A stretch of DNA of 24,000 nt from Pseudonocardia sp. NPDC049635 (GTDB lineage Bacteria; Actinomycetota; Actinomycetes; Mycobacteriales; Pseudonocardiaceae). The stretch is taken from positions 124,235-148,234 of the forward strand of contig NZ_JBFAON010000008.1 in assembly GCF_040659795.1 (NCBI RefSeq), given 5' to 3'. Every line of letters begins with the position of its first letter. The first letter of the stretch is position 1. The notes beneath the pieces were generated by a model. That model saw nothing but the letters and a program-made list of their open reading frames with translations. It was not told the origin of the DNA and did no database searches. Positions 3,096 through 20,715 of this stretch are shown piece after piece. A program made the position numbers and the translations under genes.

Positions 3096-3214
3096 GGCCG
3101 GATCCTAGGTCCGCGAACGCCGCCCGGGGATCCCCCGGACTTCCCCCGACGTGGGGGACGAGAACGCGATCCGCGGATTCCTACGGTCGATCCGCCACCC
3201 ACGAAAGGCGCGTG
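3096..3214. promoter_or_regulatory. divergent intergenic region between the response-regulator gene and tkt (putative promoters/operators)
   Basis: 119 bp between two divergent start codons. It contains GGGGATCCCC (3126-3135), TCCCCC-n5-GGGGGA (3142-3158) and ATCCGCGGAT (3169-3178). The tkt SD GAAAGG is at 3203-3208. No promoter hexamers could be assigned with confidence. Confidence 0.35.
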
Positions 3215-5290
3215 ATGACCGAGAACCGGAGCCAACAGGTCCTCCACCCGTTCGACACGCCCCGGGACGTGCCGGACCGCACACCCACCACCGACCTCGA
3301 CGAGCTCGCCGCCCACACGATCCGGCTGCTGACGGTCGACGCGGTGGAGGAGGCCGGGAGCGGGCACCCCGGCCTGCCGCTGGGCGCCGCCCTCCCGGCA
3401 TGGGTGCTGTGGTCGCGGCACCTGCGCCACGACCCCGCCGACCCGGGCTGGCCGGACCGGGACCGTTTCGTGCTCTCCGCCGGGCACGGCTCGATGTTGC
3501 TCTACGCGTTGCTGCACCTGACCGGCTACGACCTCGGCCTCGACGACCTGCGCCGGTTCCGCACGACGGGATCCCGCACGCCGGGCCATCCCGAGTACGG
3601 GATCACCCCCGGCGTGGAGACCACCACCGGCCCGCTGGGGCAGGGGATCGCCACCGCCGTCGGGATGGCGCTCGCCGAGCGGATGCTCGCCGAGCGCTGC
3701 AACTCCGCGGAGCACCCGGTCGTCGACCACCGGACCTGGGTGCTGGCCGGCGACGGCTGCCTGATGGAGGGCGTCAGCCACGAGGCCGCGTCGCTGGCCG
3801 GGCGGCTCGGTCTCGACCGGCTCACCGTGGTGTTCGACGACAACGACGTCACCATCGACGGGCCCGCCACACACAGCTGCACCGACGACGTCGAGGCCCG
3901 TTTCCGGGCCTACGGCTGGCACACGGTGCGGGTCGAGGACGGCACCGATGCCGCCGCGCTGGACCGCGCCTACACGGCCGCCCGCGCCGAGACCGGCCGG
4001 CCGACCCTGGTGTCGGTCCGGACCACGATCGGTCTCGGCGCACCCGGGGTGGAGGGCACGCCGAAGGCGCACGGCAGCCCGGTCGGCCCGGCGGCGGTGC
4101 GGGCGATGCGGGCCGCCGCGGGAATGCCGGACACGCCGTTCGCCGTCCCCGCCGAGCTGAGCAGGTCCCTCGCCGGACTGCGCGAGCGGTGGACGGCGGC
4201 CCGGCGCGAGTGGACGGAGCTGCACGGGCGGTGGCGCGCCGCCCGTCCCGCGGCCGCGGCGGTGTTCCCGCTGCGTGCAACGCCGGTCCTGGACGACCTG
4301 CGCGGGCTGCGACGGCTCGCCGGTGCCGCGGACCGACCCGGCGCGCCGAGCGCCGTGGCGACCCGGCGCGCCTCGGCGGCCGCCCTGCGTGCGGTCGCCG
4401 ACGCCTGTCCCGGCCTGGTCGGTGGCTCCGCGGACCTGGCCTCCTCGACCGGGACGGTGCTGCCCGGTGGTGACGTCGGCCCCGGTTCGTTCGCCGCACG
4501 GACCGTGGCGTTCGGCATCCGGGAGCACGGGATGGCCGCGGCGCTGAACGGGATCGCCCTGCACGGCGGGCTGCGGCCGTTCGGCAGCACCTTCCTGGTG
4601 TTCGCCGACTATCTCCGCCCGGCGCTGCGGCTGTCGGCCATGATGGGGCTCCCGGTCACCTACCTGTTCACCCACGACTCGGTGCACGTCGGTGAGGACG
4701 GGCCGACCCATCAACCGGTCGAGCAGCTGGAGTCGCTGCGGCTGATCCCCGGCCTGACCGTGCTGCGCCCGGCCGACTCCGCCGAGACCGCGCTCGCCTG
4801 GGAGATCGCCGCGACCTCCACCGACCGGCCGACCGCGGTCGTGCTGAGCAGGCAGGACCTCCCCGAGCTCGGCTCCGGGGACCTCGACCGGATCCGCGAG
4901 CACGGGTTCCGGGTGGTCGGCACCGACCCGGCCCGGCCGGACGTCGTGCTGGCCGCCAGTGGCTCCGAGGTCGGGCTGGCCTGCAAGGCCGCCGAGCTGC
5001 TGCGTGCCCGCGGCACCGCGGCGCGGGTGCTGTCGGTGCCGTGGCGGGAACGGTTCGACCGGGCCCTCGACGCCGGGCAGGTCCCCCGGCCCGCGGTGCC
5101 GGTGGTGTGGATCGAGGCCGGCGTCCCGACCGGGTGGCGGGCGCTCGCCCGGCCCGGGGACACGGTGATCGGGATCGAGTCCTTCGGGCACAGCGGCCCC
5201 GGCGCCGAGGTCGCCGCGCATCTCGGTCTCACCGTCCGGGCGGTCGCCGCGGCGGCCCTGCGCTCGATCGGCCGCACCCCGCAGGGGTGA
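3215..5290 (+). CDS. tkt: transketolase
   Basis: Track ORF 3212..5290. Motifs: [99 protein letters not shown] 3215 sits 6 nt after GAAAGG; GTG 3212 is an alternative start. Confidence 0.93.
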
Positions 5291-5318: not shown

Positions 5319-6161
5319 TCAGCGGGGCGCCGGTTCGGGGGTGAGCAGCCCGGGGTCCACGACCGCCCGGGCGGTCACCGAGGTGAGTGCCGCGTCGAGG
5401 ACCAGTGCGGCGTCCGCCGCGCCACCGTCGCCGAGGACGACGGCGGCGCTGTCCGGGCCCTCCCGGTGCGCCATCAGGAAGTCGTAGAGCAACCAGTCCA
5501 CCGCGCAGGCGACGGTCAGCGGATCGGCGGCGGCCGAGCCGGCGGCGTCGAGCACCGAGCGCAGTGCCTCGCGGTGCTCCCGGCGGGCGGCGTCCTTGTT
5601 CACCCCGGAGCTGTCGAACAGCAGCGTCGACAGCGTCAGCGGCAGCCGCCTGCCGTCCTCGGTGCGGACGACCCACCGCCCGCCTGCCCACGGCCGCGCC
5701 GGATCCACCCGGCACATCTCGCCGAACCCGCCGACCACACCCGGGCCGGGCCGGTCCAGTTCGTCGTCCAGCGGTGCGGGGCCGAGCAGACCGAGCGGCG
5801 CACGGGCCCGGACCGAGACGAGCGTGCTGGTGCCGACGATCTGCCCGGTCCGCACGTCCGGTTCCACACCCAGCTCGCGCGAGGCCAGCACGACGTCGTG
5901 CACCAGGCGGTCGAACACCCGGTACAGGGTGTGCAGCGACTCGCGCTCGGCGGCGTCGGGGCGTCGGCCGCCGCCGAGCAGCTCGCCGTAGCGCCGTGCC
6001 GCGTCGATCAGGGCGTCGTCCAGCGCGGCGAGGTGGGTGGCGACGAGGCGGTCCGGTTCGTCGTCGGTGGTGACCAGCGTGCGCAGCGTCGTGGGCGTGC
6101 CGTCCGGGCCCGCCCAGGAGAATCCGATCTGCTCGTCGGTCTGCAGGATCCGTGGTCTCAC
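5319..6161 (-). CDS. hypothetical protein, last gene of the hydrogenase operon
   Basis: 280 aa. GTG 6161 forms a GTGA overlap with the stop of the upstream ORF. Codon usage is GC3-rich like its neighbours. I recognise no motif, signal peptide or TM segment. Confidence 0.65.
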   Translation of the reverse strand: MRPRILQTDEQIGFSWAGPDGTPTTLRTLVTTDDEPDRLVATHLAALDDALIDAARRYGELLGGGRRPDAAERESLHTLYRVFDRLVHDVVLASRELGVEPDVRTGQIVGTSTLVSVRARAPLGLLGPAPLDDELDRPGPGVVGGFGEMCRVDPARPWAGGRWVVRTEDGRRLPLTLSTLLFDSSGVNKDAARREHREALRSVLDAAGSAAADPLTVACAVDWLLYDFLMAHREGPDSAAVVLGDGGAADAALVLDAALTSVTARAVVDPGLLTPEPAPR

Positions 6162-6934
6162 GTCACCCTCCCCTTCCGTTCGCTCCGCGCCGCCACCCGG
6201 AGCAGCCGTCGGTTCGTCCGCTCCAGCTGGCGGACGGTGCTCGCCCGCAGCTCGTGCAACCGGCTGCGTTCGAGGCGGCCGCAGATCCGGCCCCAGTGCA
6301 GTGCGACCGCGTCGTCGACCCGCAGCCCGGGGGCCGGGGCGTAGCCCTCGACGACCGCCGGGATCCGGGTCACCACCGGCTCGGCGAGCCGCAGCGCGCC
6401 GCCGACCAGGCTCAGCGGCCGGTACCGGACGTCGACCTCGTCACCGCGGAGGGCGAGCACCGTCGCCCAGGTGATCCGGCAGCTGTCCAGGACGTGCAGC
6501 GGGTGCTCGTCGGCCCCGCGGCCCAGCAACCGGGTCCAGGGGTAGACGCCGAGGACGTGGAAGGCGTGGTTGCCGGCGGCCTCGTCGAGCAGGTCGGCGG
6601 TGAGGTGCGACCAGTAGTGCCCGGCCTGCGGGCCGATCACGGCCAGCAGCTCGGCGCCGAACGCCCTCGGGTCCAACCGCTCCCCCACCCCGCCGCCGAA
6701 CCAGTAGGACTCGACGACCCGTGGGTCCAGCGGGTCGTCGATCCCGGCCATCCGGGACAGCACCTGCAGGTAGGGCCAGGCGCCGGAGAACCGGCGCGCC
6801 GCGGCCCGGACCTGTGCCGCCGTCCCGGTGCGGAGCACGTCGCCCGCCGGTGGTCCGCAGTAGCCGAGGTGGTTCGGCGCGTAGGCGTAGCGGGCGAACA
6901 GCTCCGCCCCGGCGTCGGTGGCCGCCGCCGTCAC
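6158..6934 (-). CDS. hydrogenase-cluster-associated hypothetical protein
   Basis: 258 aa from GTG 6934 (GTGA overlap with the hypD stop). It lies in the frame of track ORF 6158..7231, which I trimmed at hypD. The N-terminus is distinctive: ELFARYAYAPNHLGYCGPP. No catalytic motif recognised. Confidence 0.7.
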   Translation of the reverse strand: MTAAATDAGAELFARYAYAPNHLGYCGPPAGDVLRTGTAAQVRAAARRFSGAWPYLQVLSRMAGIDDPLDPRVVESYWFGGGVGERLDPRAFGAELLAVIGPQAGHYWSHLTADLLDEAAGNHAFHVLGVYPWTRLLGRGADEHPLHVLDSCRITWATVLALRGDEVDVRYRPLSLVGGALRLAEPVVTRIPAVVEGYAPAPGLRVDDAVALHWGRICGRLERSRLHELRASTVRQLERTNRRLLRVAARSERKGRVT

Positions 6935-8067
6935 CCCTGGCCGACCAGCTGGGCGGCGTCGCGGTGCATGCGCCCGAAGTTGTAGTAGGCGGCGCACGCC
7001 CCCTCCGGGGAGACCATGCAGGTCCCGATCGGGGTCTCGGGGGTGCAGGCGGTGCCGAACACCTTGCACTCCCACGGTTTGAGCACCCCCTTCAGCACCT
7101 CGCCGCACTGGCAGGCCTTGGGGTCGGCCACCCGGACCCCCGGCAGGTCGACCCGGCGCTCGGCGTCGAACTCCGCGAACTCCTCGCGGATCGCGAGCGC
7201 GCTCTGCGAGATGAACCCGAGCCCGCGCCACTCGAAATGCGGACGCAGCGTGAACACCCGGCCCAGCAGTTCCAGCGCCGCCGGGTTGCCGTGCTCGTCG
7301 ACGACCCTGGAGTACTGGTTCTCGACCTCGCAGCGGCCCTCCCGGATCTGGGTCAGCAGCATCGCGACCGAGGCGAGGATGTCCAGCGGTTCGAATCCGG
7401 CGACCACCAGCGGCTTGCGGTAGACCTCGGGGACGAAACGGTACGGCGTCGTCCCGACGACGGTGGAGACGTGCCCGGGCCCGAGGAACCCGGACAACCG
7501 CAGGTCCGGCGAGTCCAGGATGGCCTTGATCGGCGGCACAATCGTCACGTGGTTGCAGAACACGCTGAAGTTCCGCACCCCCAGCTCACGCGCCCGGACC
7601 AGGGTGACCGCGGTGGACGGCGCGGTCGTCTCGAAACCGATCGCGTAGAACACGACCTGGCGGTCGGGGTTGTCGACGGCGATCTTCAACGCGTCCAGCG
7701 GCGAGTACACGAACCGCACGTCGCCGCCACGCGCACGGGCGTCGAGCAGGCTGCCGTTCGAACCGGGGACGCGCATCATGTCGCCGAAACAGGTCAGGAT
7801 GACCTCGGGCTGCTCGGCCAGCCAGATCGCGTCGTCGACCCGGCCCATCGGGATGACGCAGACCGGGCAACCCGGCCCGTGCACCAGCTCGACGTTGCCG
7901 GGCAGGAGGTGCTCGATGCCGTGCCGGTAGATGGTGTGGGTGTGCCCGCCGCACACCTCCATGAACTTGAAGTGTTCGCCCTCGCTGCGCGGCTCGGCGA
8001 GCCGCCCGATCGCCCCGAGCAGTGCCCGGGCTGCCGCGGGGTCGCGGAATTCGTCGACGAATCGCAT
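6931..8067 (-). CDS. hypD: [NiFe]-hydrogenase maturation protein HypD
   Basis: 378 aa starting MRFVDEFRD. Motifs: CGGHTHT, GPGCPVCV, GFETTAPS, GPGHVS, and a C-terminal Cys cluster (CQCGEVL...CTPETPIGTCMVSPEGACAAYY). Confidence 0.93.
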   Translation of the reverse strand: MRFVDEFRDPAAARALLGAIGRLAEPRSEGEHFKFMEVCGGHTHTIYRHGIEHLLPGNVELVHGPGCPVCVIPMGRVDDAIWLAEQPEVILTCFGDMMRVPGSNGSLLDARARGGDVRFVYSPLDALKIAVDNPDRQVVFYAIGFETTAPSTAVTLVRARELGVRNFSVFCNHVTIVPPIKAILDSPDLRLSGFLGPGHVSTVVGTTPYRFVPEVYRKPLVVAGFEPLDILASVAMLLTQIREGRCEVENQYSRVVDEHGNPAALELLGRVFTLRPHFEWRGLGFISQSALAIREEFAEFDAERRVDLPGVRVADPKACQCGEVLKGVLKPWECKVFGTACTPETPIGTCMVSPEGACAAYYNFGRMHRDAAQLVGQG

Positions 8068-8090: not shown

Positions 8091-8363
8091 TCAGACGATG
8101 GACGACGAATCGAGTGCGTCGATCTCGTCCTGATAGCTCTCGCCCATCTTCTGGACGGCGTCGAGGGTCAGCAGGGCCTCCTTCTCGTCGATACGCGCCA
8201 TGGCGAATCCGACGTGCACGAGAACCCATTCGTCGACGGCCGGGAAGTCCCGTTCGAGCAGCCGGACGCTGATCGTCCGCTGCACGCCGCTCACGTCGAC
8301 CTTGGCGAGACAGTTGGCCCGGTCGGTGATCTCCACGATCCGTCCGGGGATGCCGAGGCACAT
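8091..8363 (-). CDS. hypC: HypC-family hydrogenase chaperone (second copy)
   Basis: 90 aa. Has the N-terminal MCLGIPGRIVEI and the ...DEWVLVHVGFAMARID motif. SD GAGGAGAG lies just upstream. Starts 11 nt after the hypE stop. Confidence 0.9.
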   Translation of the reverse strand: MCLGIPGRIVEITDRANCLAKVDVSGVQRTISVRLLERDFPAVDEWVLVHVGFAMARIDEKEALLTLDAVQKMGESYQDEIDALDSSSIV

Positions 8364-8374
8364 GAACTCTCCTC

Positions 8375-9487
8375 TCAACAGATCCGGGGCAGCGGGTCGC
8401 CGACGAGCGTGTCGACGATCCGGGTGCCGCCGAAGCCGGTCCGGAGGACGACGGTGTCCGCGGGTTCCGCGGTGACGCTGCCGATCACCACGGCGTCCGC
8501 GCCGAGCGGATGGGCACGCAGCGCCGCCAGACCGGCGTCCACCTCGTCCGGGGCGAGCACGGCCAGGAACTTGCCCTCGTTGGCGACGTAGAGCGGGTCG
8601 ATGCCGAGCATCTCGCAGGCCCCGGCGACGACCGGGCGGACCGGCAGCGCCTCCTCGTCGAGCACGACGCCGAGCCCGCTCGCCACGGCCAGCTCGTTGC
8701 AGACGGTGCCGACCCCGCCACGGGTGGGGTCGCGCAGCCACCGGGTGGACGGCGCGGCCGCGAGCAGGTCCGCCACCGCCCCGGCGACCGCCGCGGTGTC
8801 GGAACGGATGTCGGCCTCGATCGCCAGGTCACCGCGGGCCAGCATGATCGCCATGCCGTGGTCGCCCATGAACCCGGAGAGCACGACCCGGTCGCCGGGG
8901 CGCACCGCGGCCGCGGACAGCGTCCGGCCGTCGGGCACCGACCCGACCCCGGTCGTGGTGATGTACACACCGTCCGCCGCGCCCTGCGGGACGACCTTCG
9001 TGTCACCGGCGACGATCGTCACCCCCGCCTCGGCGGCGGCCGACGCCATGTCCGCGACGATCTCCTTCAGCTCGGCGATCTCGAGACCCTCGGCGAGGAC
9101 GAACGCCGCGGTCAGCCAGGCCGGGACGGCCCCGGCCATCGCGAGGTCGTTGACCGTTCCGTGCACGGCGAGATGCCCGATCGACCCGCCAGGAAAGCGT
9201 CGTGGCGACACCACGAAGGAGTCGGTGGACACCGCGATCCGCTGCCCGCCCGGTGGGGCGAGCACCGCGCCGTCGCCGAGGTCGGCCAGTGCCGGGTTCC
9301 GGAACGCCTCCAGGAAGACGGCGTCGACCAGGGCCTGCGAGGACTTCCCGCCGGCACCGTGGGCGAGCGTGATCCGCTCCTCGCGCAGCCGTGGCCTGCG
9401 TCGGCGGAACGCCTCGATCCGGTCGATCACCTCGCCCTCGGCGAACCCCGGACCGGACTCCCGGTACTGCTGCACGGTCCCGCTCAT
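8375..9487 (-). CDS. hypE: [NiFe]-hydrogenase maturation protein HypE
   Basis: 370 aa from ATG 9487 (ATGA overlap with the upstream stop). Motifs: LAHGAGGK, HGTVNDLAMAGA, GDTKVV, and the diagnostic C-terminal PRIC. Confidence 0.93.
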   Translation of the reverse strand: MSGTVQQYRESGPGFAEGEVIDRIEAFRRRRPRLREERITLAHGAGGKSSQALVDAVFLEAFRNPALADLGDGAVLAPPGGQRIAVSTDSFVVSPRRFPGGSIGHLAVHGTVNDLAMAGAVPAWLTAAFVLAEGLEIAELKEIVADMASAAAEAGVTIVAGDTKVVPQGAADGVYITTTGVGSVPDGRTLSAAAVRPGDRVVLSGFMGDHGMAIMLARGDLAIEADIRSDTAAVAGAVADLLAAAPSTRWLRDPTRGGVGTVCNELAVASGLGVVLDEEALPVRPVVAGACEMLGIDPLYVANEGKFLAVLAPDEVDAGLAALRAHPLGADAVVIGSVTAEPADTVVLRTGFGGTRIVDTLVGDPLPRIC

Positions 9488-10131
9488 CGTCGCTCCTCCC
9501 GCATCCGGTGCACCGCGGACCACAACCGGTGGCCGAGCAGCGCCTGTGCCTCCTGGATCCGGTGCACGCTCTGCGACCGGACCACGAAGCAGACGTCGAG
9601 GTCGGTGCTCGTGGCGAACGATCCGCCGTCGTAGCCCGCGAACCCGATCGTGAACATCCCGCTCCGCCGGGCCTGTGCCAGTGCCGCCGTGAGGTCCCGG
9701 GAGCTGCCGCTGGTGGACATCGCGACGGCGATGTCGCCGTCCGCACCGCGGGCGATCAGCTGCCGGGCGAAGACCAGGTCGAAGCCGACGTCGTTGCCGA
9801 GCGCGGTGAGGATCGCCTGGTCGGCGGTCAGCGACCAGGCCGGCAACGGCCGGGCACCGGCGGGCGGGTGGGCGAACAGCGCGGCGAGGGTGGCGGCGTC
9901 GGTCGAGCTGCCGCCGTTGCCGAAGGTGAACATCCGCCCGCCGGCGGCGAACCGTTCGGCCACCGCGGCGGCGGCCCGCTCGACGTCGGCCGCGCAGTCC
10001 TCGGCGGTCGCGCGGCGCAGCCGGGCGCTCTCGGTCGACTTGGCGACCGCGGAGGCGGCGAGATCGGCCAGCAGCGGGCCCGGGTCCCGCTCCCGGGCGT
10101 CCAGGAACGGGTAGAGGAAACCGGAGCTCAT
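9484..10131 (-). CDS. SIS-domain protein (GmhA/DiaA-like sugar-phosphate isomerase fold)
   Basis: 215 aa. Motifs: FTFGNGGSSTDAA, LPAWSLTAD...LTALGND, IAVAMSTSGSSRD, SVHRIQEAQ. ATGA overlaps at both ends (10128-10131 and 9484-9487). Confidence 0.85.
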   Translation of the reverse strand: MSSGFLYPFLDARERDPGPLLADLAASAVAKSTESARLRRATAEDCAADVERAAAAVAERFAAGGRMFTFGNGGSSTDAATLAALFAHPPAGARPLPAWSLTADQAILTALGNDVGFDLVFARQLIARGADGDIAVAMSTSGSSRDLTAALAQARRSGMFTIGFAGYDGGSFATSTDLDVCFVVRSQSVHRIQEAQALLGHRLWSAVHRMREERR

Positions 10132-10859
10132 CGGGTGCCCTCCGCACTCAGCACGCGCAGCGCCGCCCCGGCGTGCACCAGCAGCAGGTCGTCGCGGCGG
10201 ACCCGCCCGACCAGGTCGACCACCACCTCCTGCTCGCCGTCCGGGGTGCGGACCAGCGCGGTCGACCCGGTGCCGGGATCGGTCACCTCGACCACCCGGC
10301 CCTCGTCGCTGCAGGTCACACACACCTCGTCGGTGCAGCCCTCGGTGGTGAGCAGGCCGGGATGCTCGAAGCAGACGTGCGTGAGCTCCCACAGCAGGTG
10401 GTAGAGCAGCACGAAGCCACCGGTCGCCGGCTGCGCCGGGTCGGGGTCGTCGTGCCACAGGACGTGATCGGCCGACCCCGCGGGCGGGCGCGCACCGTGC
10501 CCGATCCAGATCGTGGTCGCGCCCCAGGCGGGCGCCCGGCGGGCGATCTCCCGGACGTACGGGTCCGCCGCGTCCGCGACGGCGAGCACCACGTCGCCCG
10601 GGCGCACCGACAGCCGCGCGGTCGCGACCGGGTCGCGGTCGGTGAGGGCGACGGCCGGCAACGCCCTGGCCCCGACGACCACCGGGTGGACGAACTCGAC
10701 CGCGACGTGCTGCGCGTGCGGCTCCCAGGCGGGCGCCACACACCACAGGGTCGCCCCGGTGGAGAAGCGGCGGGCCAGTGTCAGGGCGGCGGCCGCGAGG
10801 TCGTCGGCGAGTTCGGGGGCGAGGCCCGCGTCCGTCCCGGTCTCCGGTGCGGTCGTCAC
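10128..10859 (-). CDS. fusion of a degenerate SIS-like N-terminal domain with a HupF/HypC-like C-terminal domain
   Basis: 243 aa from GTG 10859 (GTGA overlap with the hypC stop). The N-terminus, LWCVAPAWEPHAQHVAVEFVHPVVVGARALPAVALT, resembles the SIS core but lacks GNGGS. The C-terminal ~75 aa, CTDEVCVTCSDEGRVVEV...ALVRTPDGEQEVVVDLVGRVRRDDLLLVHAGAAL, resembles HupF-type chaperones. Confidence 0.75.
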   Translation of the reverse strand: MTTAPETGTDAGLAPELADDLAAAALTLARRFSTGATLWCVAPAWEPHAQHVAVEFVHPVVVGARALPAVALTDRDPVATARLSVRPGDVVLAVADAADPYVREIARRAPAWGATTIWIGHGARPPAGSADHVLWHDDPDPAQPATGGFVLLYHLLWELTHVCFEHPGLLTTEGCTDEVCVTCSDEGRVVEVTDPGTGSTALVRTPDGEQEVVVDLVGRVRRDDLLLVHAGAALRVLSAEGTR

Positions 10860-11107
10860 GAGGACACCCCCCGGTCCTCGAGGACGCCGTACTCGACCAT
10901 GGTCCGCAACGTCGCCATGGCGGCCGCCTCGTCGACATGGCTGAGCGCGAACCCGGCGTGCGCGATCGTGTACTCCCCGACCTGCAGGTCCGGGACGTAG
11001 GCGAGGCAGAGGTCCTGTTCGGTGTCCGGGAAGCGGACCCGAGCCATGCGGGCGCCGGTCTCGGCGTCCCAGACCCGGATCACCTGCCCGGGGATTCCTA
11101 GGCACAT
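10856..11107 (-). CDS. hypC: HypC-family hydrogenase chaperone (first copy)
   Basis: 83 aa. Starts [12 protein letters not shown] and contains ...[19 protein letters not shown] 11107 overlaps the hypF stop (TAG 11098-11100) by 10 nt. Confidence 0.9.
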
Positions 11108-13533
11108 GGGCTGGACCCTCCTGGTCGTGCGTGGTGGTGGACGGCGGACGGTCCCCCGGAGCCGGGTCGCTCCGCCAGGGCCGTCAGTACCGCTGTCGCA
11201 GCCTGGCCGAGCGCCAGACCGCCGTCGTTGGGCGGGACCACCCGGTGGGTGAGCACCTCGTGCCCGGCGGCCTGCAGCCGCCGCCGGGTCTCCCGCAGCA
11301 ACAGCACGTTCGCGAAGACGCCGCCGGTCAGGCCGACCGTCCGTCGACCGGGGGCGAGGACCGCGACGGCCCGGACGACGGCGTCGGCCAGCGCCCGGTG
11401 GAACGCCGCGGCGAGCTCGGCCGGCCGGATCCCGTGCCGCAGCCCGGCGACGATCCCGCGGATCACCGGGCCCGGATCGAGGACGCCGTCGGGGCCGACA
11501 CCGAACCCGGGCACCGGCCACCGGGACCGTCCGCCCGGTGCCGCGCCCGACGTCGCGGTCGCGGCGAGCGCCTCCAGCTCGATCGCGGCCTGACCCTCGA
11601 ACGCGATCCGGTGCCGCACGTCGAGCAGGGACGCGACGGCGTCGAACAGCCGGCCGACACTGCTGGTCGGCACACAGCCCACACCGCTGTCCAGCTGGGA
11701 CTCCAGCGCGGCCCGCTCGGCGGCGGAGGTGGCCCGCACCGGGGCCAGGTCCGCGGTGCGGGCCACCCCGGCCGCGCGGGCGTGCACCAGCGCCATCCGC
11801 CACGGGTTGCGGACCGCGGCGTCACCGCCGGGCAGCGGCACCGGTGCGAGGTGGCCGGCCCGGGTGAACCGGTGACCGTCCGCTCCGACCAGCAGGATCT
11901 CCCCGCCCCAGACGGTGCCGTCGGTGCCGTGACCGGTCCCGTCGAAGGCGACGCCGACGACCGGGCTGCCCAGCCGTCCGTGCTCGGCGAGCAACGCCAG
12001 CACGTGCGCGTGGTGGTGCTGCACGAGATCGGGTGGACGGTCCCCGGCGAGCCGTTCGGCCCGGCCCCGGGTGAGGTAGCCGGGGTGCAGGTCGGCGACC
12101 ACCCGCTCCGGACGCCCGCGCAGGGCGGTGAGCCGCTCGACGGCCCGGTCGAACGCGAGGGTGGTCTCCAGCGATCCCATGTCACCGACGTGCGCCGAGC
12201 AGAAGGCGTGCCTGCCGTCGGTCAGGCAGAACGTGTTCTTGAGCTCGCCACCGACGGCGAGCACCCGCGGCCCGGTGACCCCCAGGTCGATCGGCAACGG
12301 GGCGTACCCGCGGGACCGCCGGATCGGCAGTTCCTCGCCGTCGACGACCCGGACCACCGAGTCGTCGCACGGCACCTCGATCGGCCGGTCGTGGTCGAGC
12401 ACCGCGTCGCACAGCCCCGGCAGCCGGTCACGGGCGTCAGCGTCGGTGTGGCACAGCGGCTCGTCGCTGAGGTTCGCGCTGGTCAGCACGATCGCGTCCG
12501 GGACGGGGGCCGGGTCGCCGGGGACCGGCGCGAGCAGCAGGTGGTGCACCGGGGTGTAGGGCAGCAGCAGTCCGAGCAGCGGGTTCGCCGGTGCGACCTG
12601 TTCGGCGACCGGCGCCCCGGGCCGGCGCTCCAGGAGCACGACCGGCCGCTGCGCCGAGCCCAGCACCGCCGCCTCGTCCGGGGAGATCCGCGCGTAGCGC
12701 CGTGCGGTGTCGACGTCACGGACCAGCAGTGCGAACGGCTTGCCGGTTCGGGCCTTGCGCCGGCGCAGCTCGGCCACCGCGACGGCGTCGTCCGCGGCAC
12801 AGGCCAGGTGGTAGCCACCGATCCCCTTGACGGCGACGATCCGGCCGGCCGCGAGGGCGCGCTGCGCCGCGGCGATCGCGGCGTCACCGGTGCGCCCGTC
12901 CTCCGCACAGCGGCCGGCGTCCCCGGCCGGCCCACCGTGCGCGCACCGGTAGGTCAGGACCGGGCCGCAGTCCGGGCAGGCCACCGGCTGGGCGTGGAAG
13001 CGCCGGTCGGCCGGATCGGCGTACTCGGCGGCGCAGCGCTCACACATCGCGAACCCGGCCATCGTGGTGGCCGGGCGGTCGTAGGGGAGGCCGCGGATGA
13101 TCGTGAACCGCGGGCCGCAGTCGGTGCAGGTGACGAACGGGTGCCGGTAGCGGCGGTCGGCCGGGTCGAACAGCTCGCGGAGGCAGGCGGCGCAGGTGGC
13201 GACGTCCGGGGGGACCGTGGTCGCCGCTCCCCCGGACGCCCGGCTCCCGTCGATCCGGAAGGCACCGGCGCCGGTCGCCCGCAGGTCGGTCCAGTGGACC
13301 GACTCGATCCGCGCGAGCGGGGGCGCCTCGGTGCGCAGCCTGCGGTCGAACTCGTCGAGCGCGGCGGGTGGGCCCTCGACCTCCAGGAACACCGCCGCGG
13401 AGTCGTTGCCGACCAACCCGCCCAGCTCCAGCGCGGTGGCCAGCCGGTGCACGAACGGACGGAACCCGACGCCCTGGACGACGCCGGTCACCACGGCCCG
13501 GCGACGGAGGGCACCGGCGGCCGGGGCGCTCAC
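11098..13533 (-). CDS. hypF: carbamoyltransferase HypF
   Basis: 811 aa from GTG 13533 (GTGA overlap with the NHL gene stop; GGAGG upstream). Acylphosphatase-like [18 protein letters not shown], two Zn-finger pairs (CAACLREL...CTDCGPRF; CERCAAEY...CPDCGP), a YrdC-like [12 protein letters not shown], and a Kae1-like C-terminus (LTGGVFAN...[12 protein letters not shown]). I trimmed the 918-aa track ORF. Confidence 0.93.
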
Positions 13534-14726
13534 GAGCCCGCCTCCGTGCGGTGCCACAGCACGACCCGGTTGTTGCCCGAGTCGCACACCGCGAGCCGGT
13601 CGCCGTGCAGGGACAGTCCGTAGGGCCAGCACAGCGTGTCGTCGAGCACGGCCGCCCACCGGTTCTCCCCGTTGCCGGCGAAGTCCGGCTGGGCCAGCAC
13701 GTGCCGGGCGCCGCGCCCGTCGGTCGGCACCGTGTCCCACAGCAGCACCCGGTTGTTGGCGGTGTCGGCCACCGCGAACCGGTCGCCGCACGGGTCGAGG
13801 CAGGCCGAGTAGGGGAAGCGCAACCCGGCGGCGGTCTGCGGGGCGTAGGGCCACTCGTCCCCGGTGTCCAGACCGGGCTGGCCGATCGCGAAGCCGGCGG
13901 GCCGGTCGGCGTCCGGGGCGGGTGCCCAGCCCAGCACCCGGTGGTTACCGGCGTCGGCGACCAGCAGCAGACCGTCCCGGCCGGTGACCGCGTGCGGCCA
14001 CCGGAAGCTCGCCGGGCCGACGCCCTCGCCGCGGTTCTCCTCCCGCGCTGCCGGGCCGGGCTGACCGAGCACGACGTCCGCGGGGCGTCCGGGGCCGGGG
14101 ATCCCGCCGTCCCAGCCGAGCACCCGGCGGTTGCCGGTGTCGGCGACCCAGAACCGTCCGTCCACGATCCCGACGCCGAACGGCCAGTAGAACGTGGCCG
14201 CCGAGCAGGCGCCGCCGGCGTTCGGTTCGACGCTGTCCGGGCCCGGCTGGCCGAGCACCAGGTCGGGGGCGACGTCGTCGGAGCGCGGGACGGAGTCCCA
14301 GACCAGGATCCGGTGGTGCCACGCGTCGGCGACGACCAGCCGCCCGTCGTGCACCAGCACGCCGGTGGGCAGGTTCATCCCGTTCGCCGGGCCGCGTCCG
14401 CCCGCCGCGCGGCCCTCGGTGGTCGCGTCCGGCTGGCCGAGCACGACGTCGGCCGGCTGCTCGTCGGTGTCCGGCCCGCCGTGCCAGAGGAGCACCCGGT
14501 GGTTGCCGGTGTCGGCGACGGCGAGCAGGCCCGGGTCCAGGTGCACCCCGCGCGGCGAGTACATCCAGGACCGCGAGGGCGTCGCCGAGGGCAGGGCCAA
14601 CCCGCCGGTCGCGGGTGCGCCCAGCCGGACGCCCGGTGCCCAGCCACCGGCCAGCGCCGGGTCGGTGCCGGGATCGACGCGTGTCGGGCGCCCGCCGATG
14701 CTGTGCCGGACCGTCAGCCGGCTCAC
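13530..14726 (-). CDS. six-bladed NHL-repeat beta-propeller protein
   Basis: 398 aa from GTG 14726 (GTGA overlap with the hucE-like stop). Six blade signatures: [91 protein letters not shown]. Recurrent VLGQP/AIGQP/VLAQP linkers. No signal peptide by eye. Confidence 0.85.
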
Positions 14727-15628
14727 GGTTCGGCCCGGACCCAGACGGTGTCGCGCTCGACCCGCATCGGGAGCCGTTCGAGCTGGGCGCCGGGCGCGCT
14801 CAGGCACTCCCCGGAGCCGGCGTCGAAGCAGAACCCGTGCCACGGGCAGGTGAGCGTGCCCGCGGTGACGTCGAGCAGCGCGTCGTCGAGCGGGAGCCCC
14901 TCGTGCGCGCAGGCGTTGCGGAACGCGGCGAGCCCGTTGTCGACGTTCACCACGACCAGCGAGGCCCGCCCGCCGGGTGTGTCCACCTCGACCGGGTGCA
15001 CCGCCCCCACCGGGAACTGCGCGGTGGACCCGGCCCGCGACCAGCCCTGGGTCGCCGGGTCCGGGCCGATCCGCAGCTCGTCGAGCGGGATCAGGGTCGG
15101 CGACGGCTCGTTCGGCAGCACCTCGACGGTGGTGATCTCCGGTACGCCCTCGACCAGGCTGGACTCGACGAGGTTGCGCAGCGTCACCGAGGACATCGAG
15201 CAACCGTTGCAGGCACCCTCCAGCCGGACGAACGCGGTCGCGCCCTCCACCCGGTCCAGCAGCACGTTCCCGCCGTGGCTCGCCAGCTGCGGTCGCACCC
15301 CGGCCAGAGCCCGTTCGGCCCGGACCGACGGGGGTTCGCGCACGATCCCGTGCAGCGACAGCAGCATCCGCACCACCGGCTCGTCGGCCAGCTCGAACAG
15401 GGCGGGCCGGGTCGCCTCGTCGGCCTTGAGCCGGCGGACGATCTGCACCAGCCCGGCCCGATGCACCGCCTCCAGCGCCGCCCGCAGCTCCTCGGCGGCG
15501 GCCCGCGCGGCCGGGTCGAGGTCGGCCAGTGCGCTCACGGCACGGTCGACGCGGCCGGCGAGCTCCTCGAAGGTCGGTTCGGTGCCCGGCTCGGCAGCCG
15601 GGGCCGTGGGGGATACCGAGGTCGTCAT
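14723..15628 (-). CDS. hucE: HucE-like putative iron-sulfur protein (NifU C-terminal-like domain + Rieske [2Fe-2S] domain)
   Basis: 301 aa from ATG 15628 (SD GAGGAA 5 nt upstream). NifU-like LEGACNGCSMSSVTLRNLVE. Rieske motifs: CAHEG...(19 aa)...CPWHGFCF. Confidence 0.82.
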   Translation of the reverse strand: MTTSVSPTAPAAEPGTEPTFEELAGRVDRAVSALADLDPAARAAAEELRAALEAVHRAGLVQIVRRLKADEATRPALFELADEPVVRMLLSLHGIVREPPSVRAERALAGVRPQLASHGGNVLLDRVEGATAFVRLEGACNGCSMSSVTLRNLVESSLVEGVPEITTVEVLPNEPSPTLIPLDELRIGPDPATQGWSRAGSTAQFPVGAVHPVEVDTPGGRASLVVVNVDNGLAAFRNACAHEGLPLDDALLDVTAGTLTCPWHGFCFDAGSGECLSAPGAQLERLPMRVERDTVWVRAEP

Positions 15629-15680: not shown

Positions 15681-17033
15681 TCAGCCGGGGGCCGGTGCCG
15701 GTGCGTCGTGCTCGGCGGTGCGGGCCAGTGCGGTCTGCCGGGCGATCTCGTCGAGCACACCGCGCACCGCGCGCACCGACGCCTCGTCGGTGTGCTCCTC
15801 GAACAGGAAGCGCGCCTCGTAGAGGCGGGCCTTGGCGTCGTCGAACGCCCCGAGGTGGGCGAGGACGGTCCCCTGGTTGCTGAGCACCCTGGCCCGGCCG
15901 AGCGGATCGGCGTGCCGGTCCCGGGTCTGCAGCACCGCCTCGTAGATCTCGACGGCGTCGACCAGGTTCTCCTCGCGGTGCGCGGTCGGGCCGTAGACCA
16001 GCGAGTTGGCGAGGTTCAGCTGCAGGCTCGCCCACTCGGCCGGGTGGTCCTCGCGGGTGTAGACGGTCAGCGCCGCCCGCAGCGACTGGGCCGCGATCCC
16101 CAGCCGCAGCTGCCCGGAGGCCTCGACCATCGGCATCGTCAGATAGGCCGTGGCCAGTCCGGCGTGCGCCGCGGCCCAGGTCAGCGCCGCGTCCTCGCGG
16201 CGCACCAGCTGCAGCGCCGCGTGGTAGTGCGGGACGGCCCGGTTCAGCATGTCGGGCCGGTCGTCCGCCTGCTCGTGCAGCGCCCCGGCCAGCTCCAGGT
16301 GCACCTCGGCCCGGCCGACGGCCACGCCGTCGGCGTCGTCGAGCAGGGCCAGCGCCTGCTCGAAGCGGGCCACGCAGCCGAGGTCACCGTGTTCGCGCAG
16401 GATCCCGGCGGCGGCCGCGTGCAGCAGGCCGGCCAGCGGCGGTGACACCGGTGCGGCCTGCTCGACGGCCCGGTCCAGCAGGGCCACGGCGGCGGCGGGC
16501 CCGTCGGTGCCGAGCACGTGGGCGGCCTGCGCGGACAGCACGAGCGCGCCGATCTCGCCGTCGGCCACCTCGCCGTCGGCCACGTCACCGTCGGCCACCG
16601 CGCCGGACGAGCCGGGGGGCTGGTCGGTCCGGCCGAGCGCGAACAGCACCAGGTCGACCAGCACACCGAGCTCCCCCAGCTCCCGGCGGAGCCGGTCCGG
16701 GTCGGTGCCGCGCGGGGCCGGCGCGTCCGGGTCGAGGACGAAGCGGTTGTACCGGGCGACCGGTCCGGGCTCGGGATCGGCGTCCAGCACGGCGAGCGCA
16801 CCGTCCCGGTCCCCGGCCAGCGCCAGCTCGTGGGCACGCAACCGGTCCGGCCAGCGCGCCGGCACCCGCCCGGCGAGCAGGTCGAGACGGGCCGGGTCGG
16901 TGTCCGTTCCGGCCGGTACCAGGAGGTACCCGAGCGGCAGCGGCAGGACGCCGAGCGGCTGCGGTCGGGTGAGCAGCCCGGCCGGGCCGGGATCGTGCGG
17001 TCGGTCGGCCATCTGGGGGTCCCTCGTGTTCAT
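15681..17033 (-). CDS. TPR-like helical-repeat protein, function unknown
   Basis: 450 aa from ATG 17033 (ATGA overlap with the stop of the 81-aa ORF). The C-terminal two-thirds shows TPR-like helix pairs (LTWAAAHAGLATAYLTM, EWASLQLNLANSLVYG, RARVLSNQGTVLAHLGAFDDAKARLYEARFLFE). I trimmed the 764-aa track ORF. Confidence 0.75.
   Translation of the reverse strand: MNTRDPQMADRPHDPGPAGLLTRPQPLGVLPLPLGYLLVPAGTDTDPARLDLLAGRVPARWPDRLRAHELALAGDRDGALAVLDADPEPGPVARYNRFVLDPDAPAPRGTDPDRLRRELGELGVLVDLVLFALGRTDQPPGSSGAVADGDVADGEVADGEIGALVLSAQAAHVLGTDGPAAAVALLDRAVEQAAPVSPPLAGLLHAAAAGILREHGDLGCVARFEQALALLDDADGVAVGRAEVHLELAGALHEQADDRPDMLNRAVPHYHAALQLVRREDAALTWAAAHAGLATAYLTMPMVEASGQLRLGIAAQSLRAALTVYTREDHPAEWASLQLNLANSLVYGPTAHREENLVDAVEIYEAVLQTRDRHADPLGRARVLSNQGTVLAHLGAFDDAKARLYEARFLFEEHTDEASVRAVRGVLDEIARQTALARTAEHDAPAPAPG
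16560..16604 (-). repeat. in-frame 15-nt tandem repeat x3 inside the TPR-like gene (encodes VADGD/VADGE/VADGE)
   Basis: Plus-strand units are gtcggccacctcgcc / gtcggccacgtcacc / gtcggccaccgcgcc. The protein reads AVADGDVADGEVADGEIGA. Confidence 0.8.
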
Positions 17034-17275
17034 CGCTGGTCTCGCTGGTCTCGTTCGGCGGCGCGGCGGATCAGCCGGGCGGAGATCCGGGCCCGTGCCT
17101 CGGTCGGATGGGAACTGATGCGCTTGCGGACCACACCGTCGGCGAAGACGACGACGATCTCGACGACCCACCGGCCGCGCTCGTGCACGACCTCGGTGTG
17201 CACGTCCAGTGCCTCGTCCACGGGGCTTTCCGGACGGGGCGTGGCCCCGGGCCGCTCGTCCGGTGTCCCGCTCAT
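17030..17275 (-). CDS. small hypothetical protein (81 aa)
   Basis: ATG 17275 lies 6 nt after the protease stop, and its own stop overlaps the next start (ATGA). Codons are GC3-rich. No motif recognised. Coding status rests only on operon context and codon bias. Confidence 0.5.
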   Translation of the reverse strand: MSGTPDERPGATPRPESPVDEALDVHTEVVHERGRWVVEIVVVFADGVVRKRISSHPTEARARISARLIRRAAERDQRDQR

Positions 17276-17281
17276 CGCCGG

Positions 17282-18100
17282 TCACGTCTCCCGGAGCGGG
17301 ATCCGCAACGCCTTCTGCTCGTCGTCCCATGCGGTCGGGCGCGGCCCGCTGACCACCCGCTCCCCCAGCACCTCCCGGACGAGGACCGACCGGTCCCCGG
17401 CCGGGTTGCGCTGCTTGAGCAGCAGGCCCCCGCTGCGCGGGCCGGTCAGCGGGACCAGCCAGAGGTCGTCGTCGCGTACCGCGGCGACCGCCGCGTCCGA
17501 CGGGAACCGGCCGGCCGCGAGCCGGGCCGGCAACCGCAGGTAGCCGTCCGGGGTGAACTCCACCGGGTCGTCCGCGCCGGCGTCGGGCCGGAGCTCCGCG
17601 AGGTACTCCCGCTCCACCATCTCGATCACCTGTTCCATCCCTCGCCGCACCGGCTCGGACAGCTCGGCGCCGAGCTCCACGCCTGCCACCTCGATCAGGA
17701 ACACCGTGATGTCGTCCGGGCAGGCCTCCGCCAGCGCCCACCGGGCCAGTGCGATCGCATGGTCCCAACGGAACGAGTGCGTGTGCACCCCCTCGAGCGG
17801 AGGCAGGTCGGCCAGCTCGGCGCCCGGAACGCGGAACACGGTGCCCGGGTCCGAGCCGGTCGCCGCAGCGTCGACGACGACGACGCGATCGGCGCCGCGC
17901 ATCTGGAACGCGACGTCCATCCCCGCGGTGCCGCCGTCGACCAGCCGGGCGCCGTCCGGGACACCGCGTTCCCACAGGTGGCGCACGAGCACCGGGCCGA
18001 CCCCGTCGTCACCCCGCAGCAGGTTCCCGCAGCCGATCACCAGCACGGCGCAGCCGGGCGGTTCCAGGTCCGGGGGTTCGGTGGCGGACGTCGGACTCAC
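17282..18100 (-). CDS. [NiFe]-hydrogenase maturation endopeptidase (HupD/HybD family) with a ~100-aa C-terminal extension
   Basis: 272 aa from GTG 18100 (GTGA overlap with the large-subunit stop). Protease core: VLVIGCGNLLRGDDGVGPVLV, GGTAGMD, VVVVDAAATG, HTHSF. The ~100 extra C-terminal residues (about 17282-17590) have no protease homology that I recognise. Confidence 0.85.
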   Translation of the reverse strand: MSPTSATEPPDLEPPGCAVLVIGCGNLLRGDDGVGPVLVRHLWERGVPDGARLVDGGTAGMDVAFQMRGADRVVVVDAAATGSDPGTVFRVPGAELADLPPLEGVHTHSFRWDHAIALARWALAEACPDDITVFLIEVAGVELGAELSEPVRRGMEQVIEMVEREYLAELRPDAGADDPVEFTPDGYLRLPARLAAGRFPSDAAVAAVRDDDLWLVPLTGPRSGGLLLKQRNPAGDRSVLVREVLGERVVSGPRPTAWDDEQKALRIPLRET

Positions 18101-19743: not shown

Positions 19744-20715
19744 TCAGACGACGAACATGTCCTCCTTGGACCACTGCGGCGCCGCGATCTTCGCTGCCGC
19801 GGCGTGCGCCATGTAGGTCAGGTGGTCGCTTCCCTCGGGGACCTCCTTCGGGATGGCCCCGCTGACCTTCTGCGTCTTGAACACCGTCCCCGGTGCGAGA
19901 TCGAAGTGCGGGAACTCGGGCTCGGTGCAGCCCAGGCACGGCATGCCGGCCCTGGTCTTCGACGACTGCCGGTTCCACAGGATCCGGTTGCACGGCGAGT
20001 GCGTCATCGGCCCGCGGCAGCCGAGCTCGTAGAACAGGCAGCCGGTGCGGGTGCCCTCCCCGAACGAGTACGTGGACTGCTTGTACTCGAAGAACTGGAC
20101 CCGGGTGCAGCCGGTCTGGGTGAAGGACTTGAAGAACGTCTCCGGCCGGTGCATGTCGTCGAGCGTGATGTCGCCCGCCCGGCCGGTGGCGAGCGCGACG
20201 AGGATCTGGGTGATCCAGTCGGGGTGCGCGGGGCAGCCCGGCACGTTGATCACCGGTAGCCCCATCTTGGACTTGAAGTCGGGGCCGAGGAACCCGCCCT
20301 TGGCCCGCTTGTGGAACTGCAGTCCGGTCGAACCGGACGGGTTCGGCTCCATCGCCGGGATCCCGCCGAAGCAGGCGCAGTCACCGATGGCGACCACGAT
20401 CTGCGCCGCCGCGGCCAGGTCGGTGACCCAGTCCTTCATCGGCCGGTCGGCGAACATGTCCATCCGCCCGGAGCCGTCGGGCGCCTCGATGACGGTGCCC
20501 TCGAACACGAAGATGTCCAGCGGGCGATCGCCGTTCACGCAGTCCCAGAAGACCTTCTGCGCGTTCTTGCCCAGCTCCAGCCCGAGCGACGGGTGCCAGA
20601 CCAGATCCAGCCCGAAGTCGACGATCAGGTCGACGACGTTCGGTTCCTCGGCGTTGAGGAACGACATCGTGTTCCCGCTGCACGCTCCGCCCTGGAACCA
20701 CAGCACGGACGCCAT
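19744..20715 (-). CDS. hucS: [NiFe]-hydrogenase small subunit, group 2a, no Tat signal
   Basis: 323 aa. It begins directly at MASVLWFQGGACSGN, with no twin-arginine leader. Motifs: GDCACFGGIP, VPGCPAHPDW, GCLFYELGCRGP, SPCN, MPCLGCTEPEFP. SD GAGAGGAG is upstream. Confidence 0.95.
   Translation of the reverse strand: MASVLWFQGGACSGNTMSFLNAEEPNVVDLIVDFGLDLVWHPSLGLELGKNAQKVFWDCVNGDRPLDIFVFEGTVIEAPDGSGRMDMFADRPMKDWVTDLAAAAQIVVAIGDCACFGGIPAMEPNPSGSTGLQFHKRAKGGFLGPDFKSKMGLPVINVPGCPAHPDWITQILVALATGRAGDITLDDMHRPETFFKSFTQTGCTRVQFFEYKQSTYSFGEGTRTGCLFYELGCRGPMTHSPCNRILWNRQSSKTRAGMPCLGCTEPEFPHFDLAPGTVFKTQKVSGAIPKEVPEGSDHLTYMAHAAAAKIAAPQWSKEDMFVV

Follow-up and report, generated by a model that had tools for sequence, protein, structure and literature searches.

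Here we describe two adjacent genes in a hydrogenase gene cluster of Pseudonocardia sp. NPDC049635, found within a stretch of 24,000 nucleotides (NZ_JBFAON010000008.1, positions 124,235-148,234; hereafter the window). The two open reading frames (ORFs), here called ORF A and ORF B, are flanked by hypC and hypE in the cluster of a Huc-type [NiFe]-hydrogenase. Our results suggest that both are diverged paralogues of GmhA, the tetrameric zinc enzyme sedoheptulose-7-phosphate (S7P) isomerase, and that they probably act as an obligate hetero-oligomer in [NiFe]-hydrogenase maturation. Judged from the residues retained by each family, the two proteins are degenerate in complementary ways, and each carries half of a GmhA-type site. 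ORF A has kept the three zinc ligands that come from one and the same chain, and ORF B the cross-chain Gln together with the substrate pocket.

The two genes and their immediate neighbours are as follows.

10856-11107, minus strand: hypC paralogue 1, the upstream neighbour of ORF A (PF01455, E=9.6e-19)
10128-10859, minus strand: ORF A, 243 amino acids, a GmhA-fold domain (SIS') plus a HypC-like domain
9484-10131, minus strand: ORF B, 215 amino acids, a GmhA-like SIS protein
8375-9487, minus strand: hypE, the downstream neighbour of ORF B; its translation ends in a PRIC motif, and it occupies the homologous position in 78 loci

These four genes are joined by start/stop overlaps of four nucleotides. 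The stop codon of hypC overlaps the GTG start of ORF A as GTGA (10859-10856), the stop codon of ORF A overlaps the start of ORF B as ATGA (10131-10128), and the stop codon of ORF B overlaps the start of hypE as ATGA (9487-9484). The coding frames of ORF A and ORF B are both backed by third-position GC content. An initial annotation, made from the DNA sequence alone, had placed the three junctions and a set of motifs in both proteins; all of them were found on the minus strand where it had put them.

ORF B is the more readily recognized member of the pair. Its sequence shows 100% identity to a database protein of Pseudonocardia sp. NPDC049635. It matches Pfam SIS_2 (E=5.2e-15) and the NCBIfam GmhA models (E ~1e-32), and its residues 43-207 match solved GmhA structures (E=7.5e-30), in agreement with the SIS/GmhA-type assignment of the initial annotation. 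Yet its scores fall under the equivalog cut-offs of the GmhA models (110.2 vs 209.45 bits for TIGR00441, 116 vs 276 for NF010546 and 88 vs 265 for NF001628). The motifs FGNGGSSTDA, AMSTSGSSRD and VHRIQEAQ were all located, and the following segments bear on the active site and on the N-terminus.

9907-9921, minus strand: GNGGS phosphate and sugar loop, ORF B residues 71-75, kept in 85-86 of 86 family members
9877-9891, minus strand: TLAAL, ORF B residues 81-85, with Thr81 and Leu85 at the positions of GmhA His61 and Glu65
9700-9717, minus strand: STSGSS phosphate-binding loop, ORF B residues 139-144, with Ser, Thr, Ser, Gly and the later Ser in 86/86
9526-9561, minus strand: RIQEAQALLGHR, ORF B residues 191-202, with Gln193 equivalent to GmhA Gln172; Arg, Gln and Glu in 86/86
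10105-10119, minus strand: FLYPF motif, ORF B residues 5-9, in an N-terminal extension absent from GmhA

For a residue census, 86 distinct ORF B-type sequences and 121 ORF A-type N-domains were aligned with E. coli GmhA and DiaA, and positions were numbered as in E. coli GmhA. The ORF B family keeps GNGGS, Asp58, Asn93/Asp94, Ser119-Thr120-Ser121-Gly122, Ser124, Arg170, Gln172 and Glu173 in ~100% of its members (n=86), and the phosphosugar-binding residues are present in 85-86 of 86 at each position. The position of His61 is occupied by Thr in 79/86 and that of Glu65 by Leu in 80/86, while the position of His180 holds Tyr in 74/86 and His in 6/86, the window ORF B having His. The placement of Thr81 and Leu85 was read from a pairwise alignment to B. 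pseudomallei GmhA. The four zinc and catalytic residues (His61, Glu65, Gln172 and His180) are not all found on the ORF B chain.

The N-terminal extension of ORF B relatives comprises ~30 residues with an invariant FLYPF(L/I)D motif, and GmhA and DiaA are without it. Leu6, Tyr7 and Pro8 of the motif are invariant in the family alignment, and in natural fusions of A and B the motif follows directly after the linker. The extension could be a docking peptide.

The N-terminal half of ORF A is much more diverged. Its main segments are listed here.

10350-10820, minus strand: SIS' domain, ORF A residues ~14-170 (Foldseek, hhalign)
10683-10718, minus strand: HAQHVAVEFVHP, ORF A residues 48-59, with His51 equivalent to GmhA His61 and Glu55 to GmhA Glu65
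10362-10403, minus strand: YHLLWELTHVCFEH, ORF A residues 153-166, with His154 equivalent to GmhA His180

Searches of the SIS' domain against Pfam SIS and SIS_2 returned no SIS family at E<=1, and the only sequence matches of ORF A to this fold are weak ones to DiaA (NCBIfam E=0.031; best PDB sequence match DiaA, 2YVA, E=0.005). For the AlphaFold2 model of ORF A (pLDDT 90.3, pTM 0.87), the top 29 PDB matches in Foldseek are all GmhA or DiaA, with probability 1.00, TM ~0.62-0.72 and a root-mean-square deviation down to 2.1 Å; the SIS' domain reaches a TM of ~0.70, at 2.1-2.6 Å, to GmhA (5LU5, 2I2W and 2X3Y) and DiaA (2YVA). Profile-profile comparison by hhalign aligned SIS' with the ORF B family over 148 columns (93% probability, E=2.8e-7). 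The predicted structure and the profile alignment thus indicate that the SIS' domain has a GmhA-type fold and is a paralogue of ORF B. The initial annotation had read the motif LWCVAPAWEPHAQHVAVEFVHPVVVG, which was located, as part of the same fold with the GNGGS loop lost; this reading found no Pfam SIS match, but the model and the profile alignment bear it out.

Both phosphate loops of ORF A are replaced (AP-AW for GNGGS and ADAAD for STSG), the Asn93/Asp94 helix is deleted and Gln172 is gone. In contrast to ORF B, the ORF A family keeps His61 in 114/121, Glu65 in 117/121 and His180 in 115/121. Among 113 partner-associated sequences, His51, Glu55, His58, His154 and Trp157 (window numbering) are present in all 113, and His48 in 109; His48 and His58 are extra conserved residues on the same helix face as His51 and Glu55. 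A ladder of Glu158, His161, Glu165 and His166 after His154 is nearly invariant in the same 113 sequences. The register of His154 was set by two intermediates, P0338 and P0365, which still carry GSG...TDAYH and QE motifs (VVQEVHETLYH vs RIQEIHIKVIH in GmhA). Five sequences (P0293, P0327, P0358, P0316 and P0376) were left out as apparent frame-shifted gene calls. The census overturns the proposal, made in the initial annotation, of one active and one degenerate subunit: ORF B, the presumed active one, is without His61 and Glu65, and the degenerate-looking ORF A retains both as well as His180.

The C-terminal part of ORF A is a small domain of a different family.

10140-10328, minus strand: HypC-like beta-barrel domain, ORF A residues 178-240 (PF01455, E=1.1e-8)
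10311-10322, minus strand: CVTC motif, Cys180 and Cys183 of ORF A, with Cys180 equivalent to the essential N-terminal Cys of HypC

Residues 187-240 match Pfam HupF_HypC with 35.5 bits against a gathering cut-off of 28.5, and the domain stays under the TIGR00074 cut-off (22.6 vs 48 bits). The motifs CVTCSDE and LLLVHAGAAL were located. In an alignment with both HypC proteins of the window, HypC Cys2 is matched by the leading Cys of a nearly invariant C-x-T-C-S-D-E-G motif, and the nearly invariant His229 in LLLVHAGAA lines up with the conserved His51 of E. coli HypC, which lies in a (L/V)VH(V/A)G motif. Cys180, Cys183, Asp185, Glu191 and His229 are nearly invariant among 36 representatives of 50%-identity clusters. 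Cys180 is internal, within a CxxC (CVTC), and does not directly follow the initiator Met; ORF A has no counterpart of the C-terminal helix of HypC, and its 243-residue chain stops right after the barrel. From these alignments we assign the C-terminus of ORF A to the HypC family and not to HupF orthologues. It keeps both residues used by HypC at the iron unit, the Cys being internal and doubled. The label "HupF-like" of the initial annotation holds as far as the PF01455 match is concerned, and is too specific in view of the internal CxxC Cys and the missing C-terminal helix. Public databases hold thousands of homologues of ~240 residues in Actinomycetota, named only "HypC/HybG/HupF family".

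The known architecture of GmhA gives the complementary pattern its meaning. In solved GmhA, zinc is held by His, Glu and His from one monomer and by Gln from a neighbouring monomer. The ligands span two chains, and the active site involves three (PMC11056994); adjacent sites of GmhA are paired and show half-of-sites behaviour (PMC5705639). Given this zinc geometry and the complementary residue retention, each A:B pair would restore one complete site.

The genomic data are consistent with such a partnership. We scanned one genome per species and found an ORF A relative in at least 577 genomes; the synteny counts below refer to the best-scoring 80 loci among these, obtained with the closer set of ORF A relatives as query. 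ORF B follows directly after ORF A in 80/80 of these loci, and hypE-hypC-hypD come next if the contig extends far enough. The same A-then-B order with overlaps was seen in two distant contexts, P0338 and P0308 (the second adjoining a 638-residue large subunit), which brings the total adjacency to 82/82. The A-to-B junction is a start/stop overlap in 63/80 loci. The coupling of A to B is conserved and not due to chance. The pair occurs in Huc-type (2a) clusters and in a second cluster type, which is probably group 1h.

The same block of hypF-A-B-hypE-hypC-hypD is also carried by the Rhodococcus opacus plasmid pHG201, a megaplasmid (L065), and by a non-actinobacterial metagenome-assembled genome (MAG), Candidatus Sericytochromatia (L073), which suggests that the whole hyp module is horizontally mobile.

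In some genomes A and B are fused. Single chains consisting of SIS', the HypC-like domain and an ORF B-type SIS were found (P0248, P0264 and P0368), as were SIS'+SIS fusions without the HypC-like part (P0283, P0290, P0318 and P0349). The two fusions that were looked up, P0248 and P0290, both lie in the syntenic slot hypF-(hypC)-fusion-hypE; P0290 (L095:5486-6667) is preceded by a stand-alone hypC and belongs to a Huc-type cluster. Some lineages thus either do without the HypC-like domain or provide it in trans. A concatenated A+B chain, designed to mimic the natural fusions, was modelled from 9 sequences with pLDDT 80.7 and pTM 0.74, and lends weak support to a physical pair.

The loss of the site residues is correlated with the loss of the partner. 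Seven ORF A representatives have scrambled His/Glu residues (P0249, P0253, P0268, P0306, P0311, P0325 and P0345), and none of the seven has an adjacent ORF B; the next gene is hypE, hypD, a DUF6390 gene or an unrelated gene. All seven keep the structural residues and the CxxC and LVHAG motifs, and they fall at four or more separate places in a neighbour-joining tree. The partner-less genes are located at loci L083, L085, L086, L087, L088, L089 and L090. Together, the complementary residues, the 82/82 adjacency, the natural fusions and the correlated loss strengthen the earlier suggestion of a heteromer, and the expected co-occurrence with hydrogenase clusters was found in Huc (2a) clusters and in the second type, probably 1h, with the M. 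smegmatis homologue MSMEG_2706 in the Hhy cluster.

We propose a working model for the A:B pair. The A:B interface would form one full metal/phosphosugar site, with the triad from ORF A and the Gln and pocket from ORF B, and the reciprocal, symmetry-related site would be dead. By analogy with GmhA and DiaA, the assembly is expected to be A2B2, with two composite sites and two projecting HypC-like domains. These domains would stick out from the core and link it either with HypC, HypD and HypE or with the large subunit in its apo form. The complex would most likely be an accessory factor that helps to assemble the iron centre of O2-insensitive hydrogenases of the Huc/Hhy type or to pass it on. 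In such a factor the composite site would bind both a phosphosugar ligand and a metal, for which Fe2+ in a 2-His-1-carboxylate-type arrangement is plausible. We regard a metal-holding or hand-off role with bound phosphosugar as the most likely one. The combination of His-Glu-His with Gln is similar to an Fe(II) site of the 2-His-1-carboxylate kind, and the additional His/Glu ladder on two ORF A helices suggests expanded metal binding. As the full GmhA catalytic set is retained, the composite site may also carry out isomerase chemistry.

Several points weigh against this model. The position of the ORF A triad next to ORF B Gln193 is inferred from homology, and the model assumes that the pocket loops and the Gln come from the same GmhA chain, relative to the chain that bears the triad. 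The metal, the ligand and the contacts with HypC, HypD, HypE or the large subunit are predictions, and the literature searched holds no genetic or biochemical data on ORF A or ORF B. The roles put forward in the initial annotation, as a scaffold or as a module that binds or supplies a metabolite, are likewise conjectures. The fusions without a HypC-like domain show that this domain is not indispensable, and the partner-less ORF A lineages imply a function of the SIS'-HypC-like protein that needs neither ORF B nor the triad. In addition, the best-scoring 80 loci are mostly from Mycobacteriaceae and are phylogenetically non-independent.

One alternative is that the SIS'/SIS core is an inert hub, as in DiaA, which serves as an oligomerization platform only and in which the pocket and metal residues are structural relics. 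Such a hub would display two to four HypC-like domains, either to concentrate them locally or to connect HypD, HypE and the large subunit with one another. E. coli DiaA, a GmhA-fold tetramer that has lost its catalytic residues and acts as a protein-binding scaffold, is indeed the best PDB sequence match of ORF A, and ORF A survives in at least seven cluster representatives from which both ORF B and the triad are absent, which points to a site-independent function. However, relics would not be expected to stay invariant as His51, Glu55, His58 and His154 of ORF A (113/113) and the phosphosugar set of ORF B (86/86) have done. The site residues decay exactly where the partner is absent, which argues that the composite site itself is under selection, and we consider an inert hub unlikely. 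A different reading follows the public annotation of ORF B homologues as "D-sedoheptulose-7-phosphate isomerase" or "gmhA": ORF B would be a stand-alone GmhA and an operon passenger that makes heptose-7-phosphate for the envelope or for glycosylation, and ORF A would be a long HupF/HypC chaperone. The strong similarity to solved GmhA (E=7.5e-30) is in line with this annotation, but His61 and Glu65 are gone from ORF B, Glu65 being the catalytic base, and in N. gonorrhoeae GmhA a substitution of E65 truncates lipooligosaccharide. The scores of ORF B are also far under the equivalog cut-offs (110 vs 209 and 116 vs 276), ORF B always adjoins ORF A, is sometimes fused to it and always lies inside hyp clusters, and the window holds no gmhB or hddA-type heptose genes. 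We therefore rejected this reading as extremely improbable.

The intact phosphosugar pocket, as read from sequence, would also suit a metabolic gate. Here the heteromer would be a sensor of a pentose-phosphate intermediate, for instance S7P, and would permit or prevent cofactor assembly depending on the carbon or redox state, much as the SIS domains of RpiR/MurR regulators bind a ligand for regulation. SIS domains serve as sensor modules in RpiR and NanR regulators, which were found among the fold matches, Huc and Hhy are induced on carbon starvation, and a transketolase gene flanks the window cluster and two others. A sensor, however, needs neither a catalytic Glu nor a full metal triad, the transketolase adjacency was seen in 2/80 loci only, and there is no DNA-binding or signalling output domain; such a gate seems quite improbable. 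More speculative still is a role in ligand synthesis. In this scenario A:B would be a HypX-independent, oxygen-compatible enzyme that binds Fe(II) on His51, Glu55 and His154 of ORF A and Gln193 of ORF B and turns a ketose phosphate into an enediol or aldose at the metal. It would thereby yield the CO ligand or an Fe-CO unit by an aerobic route, and iron, possibly with a carbon-derived carbonyl, would be delivered to the CxxC/His HypC-like domain and then to HypCD. Between them the two chains preserve all of the GmhA catalytic residues, GmhA chemistry gives an aldehyde-bearing sugar, the domain attached to the site has the Cys and His with which HypC binds iron, and the window has no hypX. The iron source and the CO source without HypX are acknowledged open questions (PMC12134894). 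If true, the pair would be the missing iron or CO donor for hydrogenases that oxidize atmospheric H2. This idea is purely inferential, though, and to our knowledge there is no precedent for the biological decarbonylation of a sugar phosphate. The absence of hypX is known for the window only, and many Huc/Hhy-type clusters have ORF A alone or neither gene and presumably still mature their enzymes. We hold ligand synthesis to be very unlikely, and favour the metal-holding or hand-off role described above.

The remaining genes of the window form one long array on the minus strand, as seen from third-position GC content and ORF analysis, with further genes on the plus strand.

20859-21428, minus strand: DUF1641 protein, first in transcription order
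19744-20715, minus strand: hydrogenase small subunit
18097-19704, minus strand: large subunit of the Huc-type (group 2a) [NiFe]-hydrogenase, matching 7UUS and 7UTD, structures of M. smegmatis Huc (1058 bits, E=0)
17282-18100, minus strand: maturation protease with a C-terminal extension
17030-17275, minus strand: 81-residue ORF, a coding frame between the protease and the TPR-like gene
after the 81-residue ORF, minus strand: TPR-like protein gene
14723-15628, minus strand: NifU-Rieske protein
after the NifU-Rieske gene and before hypF, minus strand: NHL-repeat protein gene
11098-13533, minus strand: hypF (ORF translation, synteny)
8091-8366, minus strand: hypC paralogue 2 (PF01455, E=2.3e-24)
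6931-8067, minus strand: hypD (ORF translation; order hypE-hypC-hypD conserved)
6158-6799, minus strand: DUF6390 protein, directly downstream of hypD (Pfam E=9e-82)
5319-6161, minus strand: 280-residue ORF with a strong coding signal
plus strand of the window: AraC-type regulator, hypA and hypB
3212-5290, plus strand: transketolase gene, flanking the cluster on the opposite strand

The large subunit matches 7UUS and 7UTD at 1058 bits, and the window cluster is therefore assigned, by sequence similarity, to the group 2a Huc [NiFe]-hydrogenases; this large subunit is the presumed client of ORF A and ORF B. The DUF1641 protein (189 residues, with the domain at its C-terminus) is encoded immediately upstream of the small subunit and, by position, may be the counterpart of HucM, the third Huc subunit of M. 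smegmatis. The HycI profile spans only residues 38-164 of the 272-residue maturation protease, which leaves a C-terminal extension of ~110 residues. The 81-residue ORF (17030-17275) gave no family match. Start/stop coupling extends through much of the array: the probable GTG start of hypF shares a GTGA with the stop of the NHL-repeat gene (13530-13533), and hypF and hypC overlap by 10 nucleotides at the hypC start (11098-11107). The operon has three PF01455 members, namely two hypC genes and the HypC-like domain of ORF A, and the upstream hypC is the more divergent of the two (TIGR00074 47.5 bits vs the cut-off of 48).

The DUF6390 gene is kept with the hyp block in nearly all 80 loci, either after hypD or between hypF and ORF A, and in L088 it comes after the partner-less ORF A; it is another uncharacterised hyp-linked gene. 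The 280-residue ORF (5319-6161) has no Pfam family, and tblastn found it after DUF6390 in several Huc-type loci (L002, L005, L006, L009, L036 and L043). The flanking transketolase was considered as a functional partner of ORF A and ORF B, as the enzyme makes S7P. The 2/80 loci with this adjacency are L036 (a Pseudonocardia MAG) and L076 (Dactylosporangium), and we rejected the link: the arrangement is probably a coincidence or lineage-specific. None of the called genes of the window, ORF A and ORF B included, has a HypX-like domain (formyltransferase plus enoyl-CoA hydratase), as had been noted before.

Soil bacteria can live on atmospheric H2 by means of Huc and Hhy hydrogenases, which are made in air. 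ORF A and ORF B are among the most consistently hyp-linked unknowns in their clusters, with ORF A relatives in the genomes of at least 577 species, and their genes have been seen before. Published descriptions of 1h and 2a clusters show "gmhA" and a hypothetical protein between hypC and hypE, and a microarray listing gives MSMEG_2706 as gmhA in the Hhy region. Acidithiobacillus GmhA was detected by proteomics among hup-operon proteins, and two adjacent "phosphoheptose isomerases" of Mycobacterium indicus pranii are listed with R. eutropha homologues. Reviews deal with HypA-F and some additional proteobacterial proteins, and leave open the iron source and, without HypX, the source of the CO ligand; a 2025 review of [NiFe] cofactor biosynthesis, which lists the iron and anaerobic CO sources as open, does not mention ORF A or ORF B (PMC12134894). 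We found no functional, structural or residue-level study of the two proteins in the literature searched. The view that the pair has no assigned function thus stands, although it has not gone unnoticed. The presence of the genes is already known; what appears to be undescribed in the literature searched is that the site is split over the two proteins and that the "HypC/HupF family" protein contains a SIS' domain.

The current labels, "gmhA" and "HypC/HupF family protein", amount to mislabelling. The split of one active site over two chains turns a vague "SIS protein" into a testable model, with an obligate heteromer, named residues and a metal/phosphosugar site. It would also be a clear natural example, of wider interest for the study of enzyme evolution, in which a heteromer has become fixed from a half-of-sites homo-oligomeric enzyme. 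We conclude that ORF A and ORF B are probably a GmhA-derived heteromer combined with a HypC-family domain, and an uncharacterised helper in building the metal centre.

Both ORFs share the fold of GmhA (SIS_2, TIGR00441; 2X3Y, 2I2W and 5I01), and the site is expected to span subunits as it does there, with the phosphosugar-binding residues and Gln172 kept by ORF B and the His61/Glu65/His180 zinc triad by ORF A. GmhA, however, is a homotetramer with all residues on each chain, whereas here they are split over two paralogues, so that at most half of the sites would be complete. Unlike GmhA, ORF B has the N-terminal FLYPF extension, ORF A is short of one helix and both loops and has gained a HypC-like domain, and the genes sit among hyp genes instead of heptose biosynthesis genes. 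The E. coli DnaA initiator-associating protein DiaA (2YVA) offers a precedent for a GmhA fold that lost its catalytic residues and was recruited to a protein-assembly role. It differs from the pair as a homotetramer that has no site-restoring partner and keeps the GNG-S and ST-G loops, and its triad is partly lost (Glu65 to Ser, His180 to Asn), while that of ORF A is kept.

The last 60 residues of ORF A resemble HypC, HybG, HupF and HoxL (PF01455) in the predicted beta-barrel, in the counterparts of Cys2 and His51 and in their genomic place among hypC, hypD and hypE. In contrast to these proteins, the Cys of ORF A is internal in a CxxC, there is neither a C-terminal helix nor a HupF-type extension, and the domain is fused behind a SIS' domain of 170 residues, whereas HypC is a stand-alone protein of ~80-100 residues; two ordinary hypC genes are present besides ORF A. 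HupK/HoxV, HupF and HypX are likewise extra cluster-encoded proteins beyond HypA-F that accompany hydrogenases made in air; their presumed task is to hold the iron unit, to protect it or to provide a ligand. HupK/HoxV, which is large-subunit-like, and HypX, which combines a formyltransferase with an enoyl-CoA hydratase, have no kinship in sequence or fold to ORF A and ORF B. HupK/HoxV, HupF and HypX have been described mainly in Pseudomonadota, whereas ORF A and ORF B occur mainly in Actinomycetota, together with Huc/Hhy-type enzymes.

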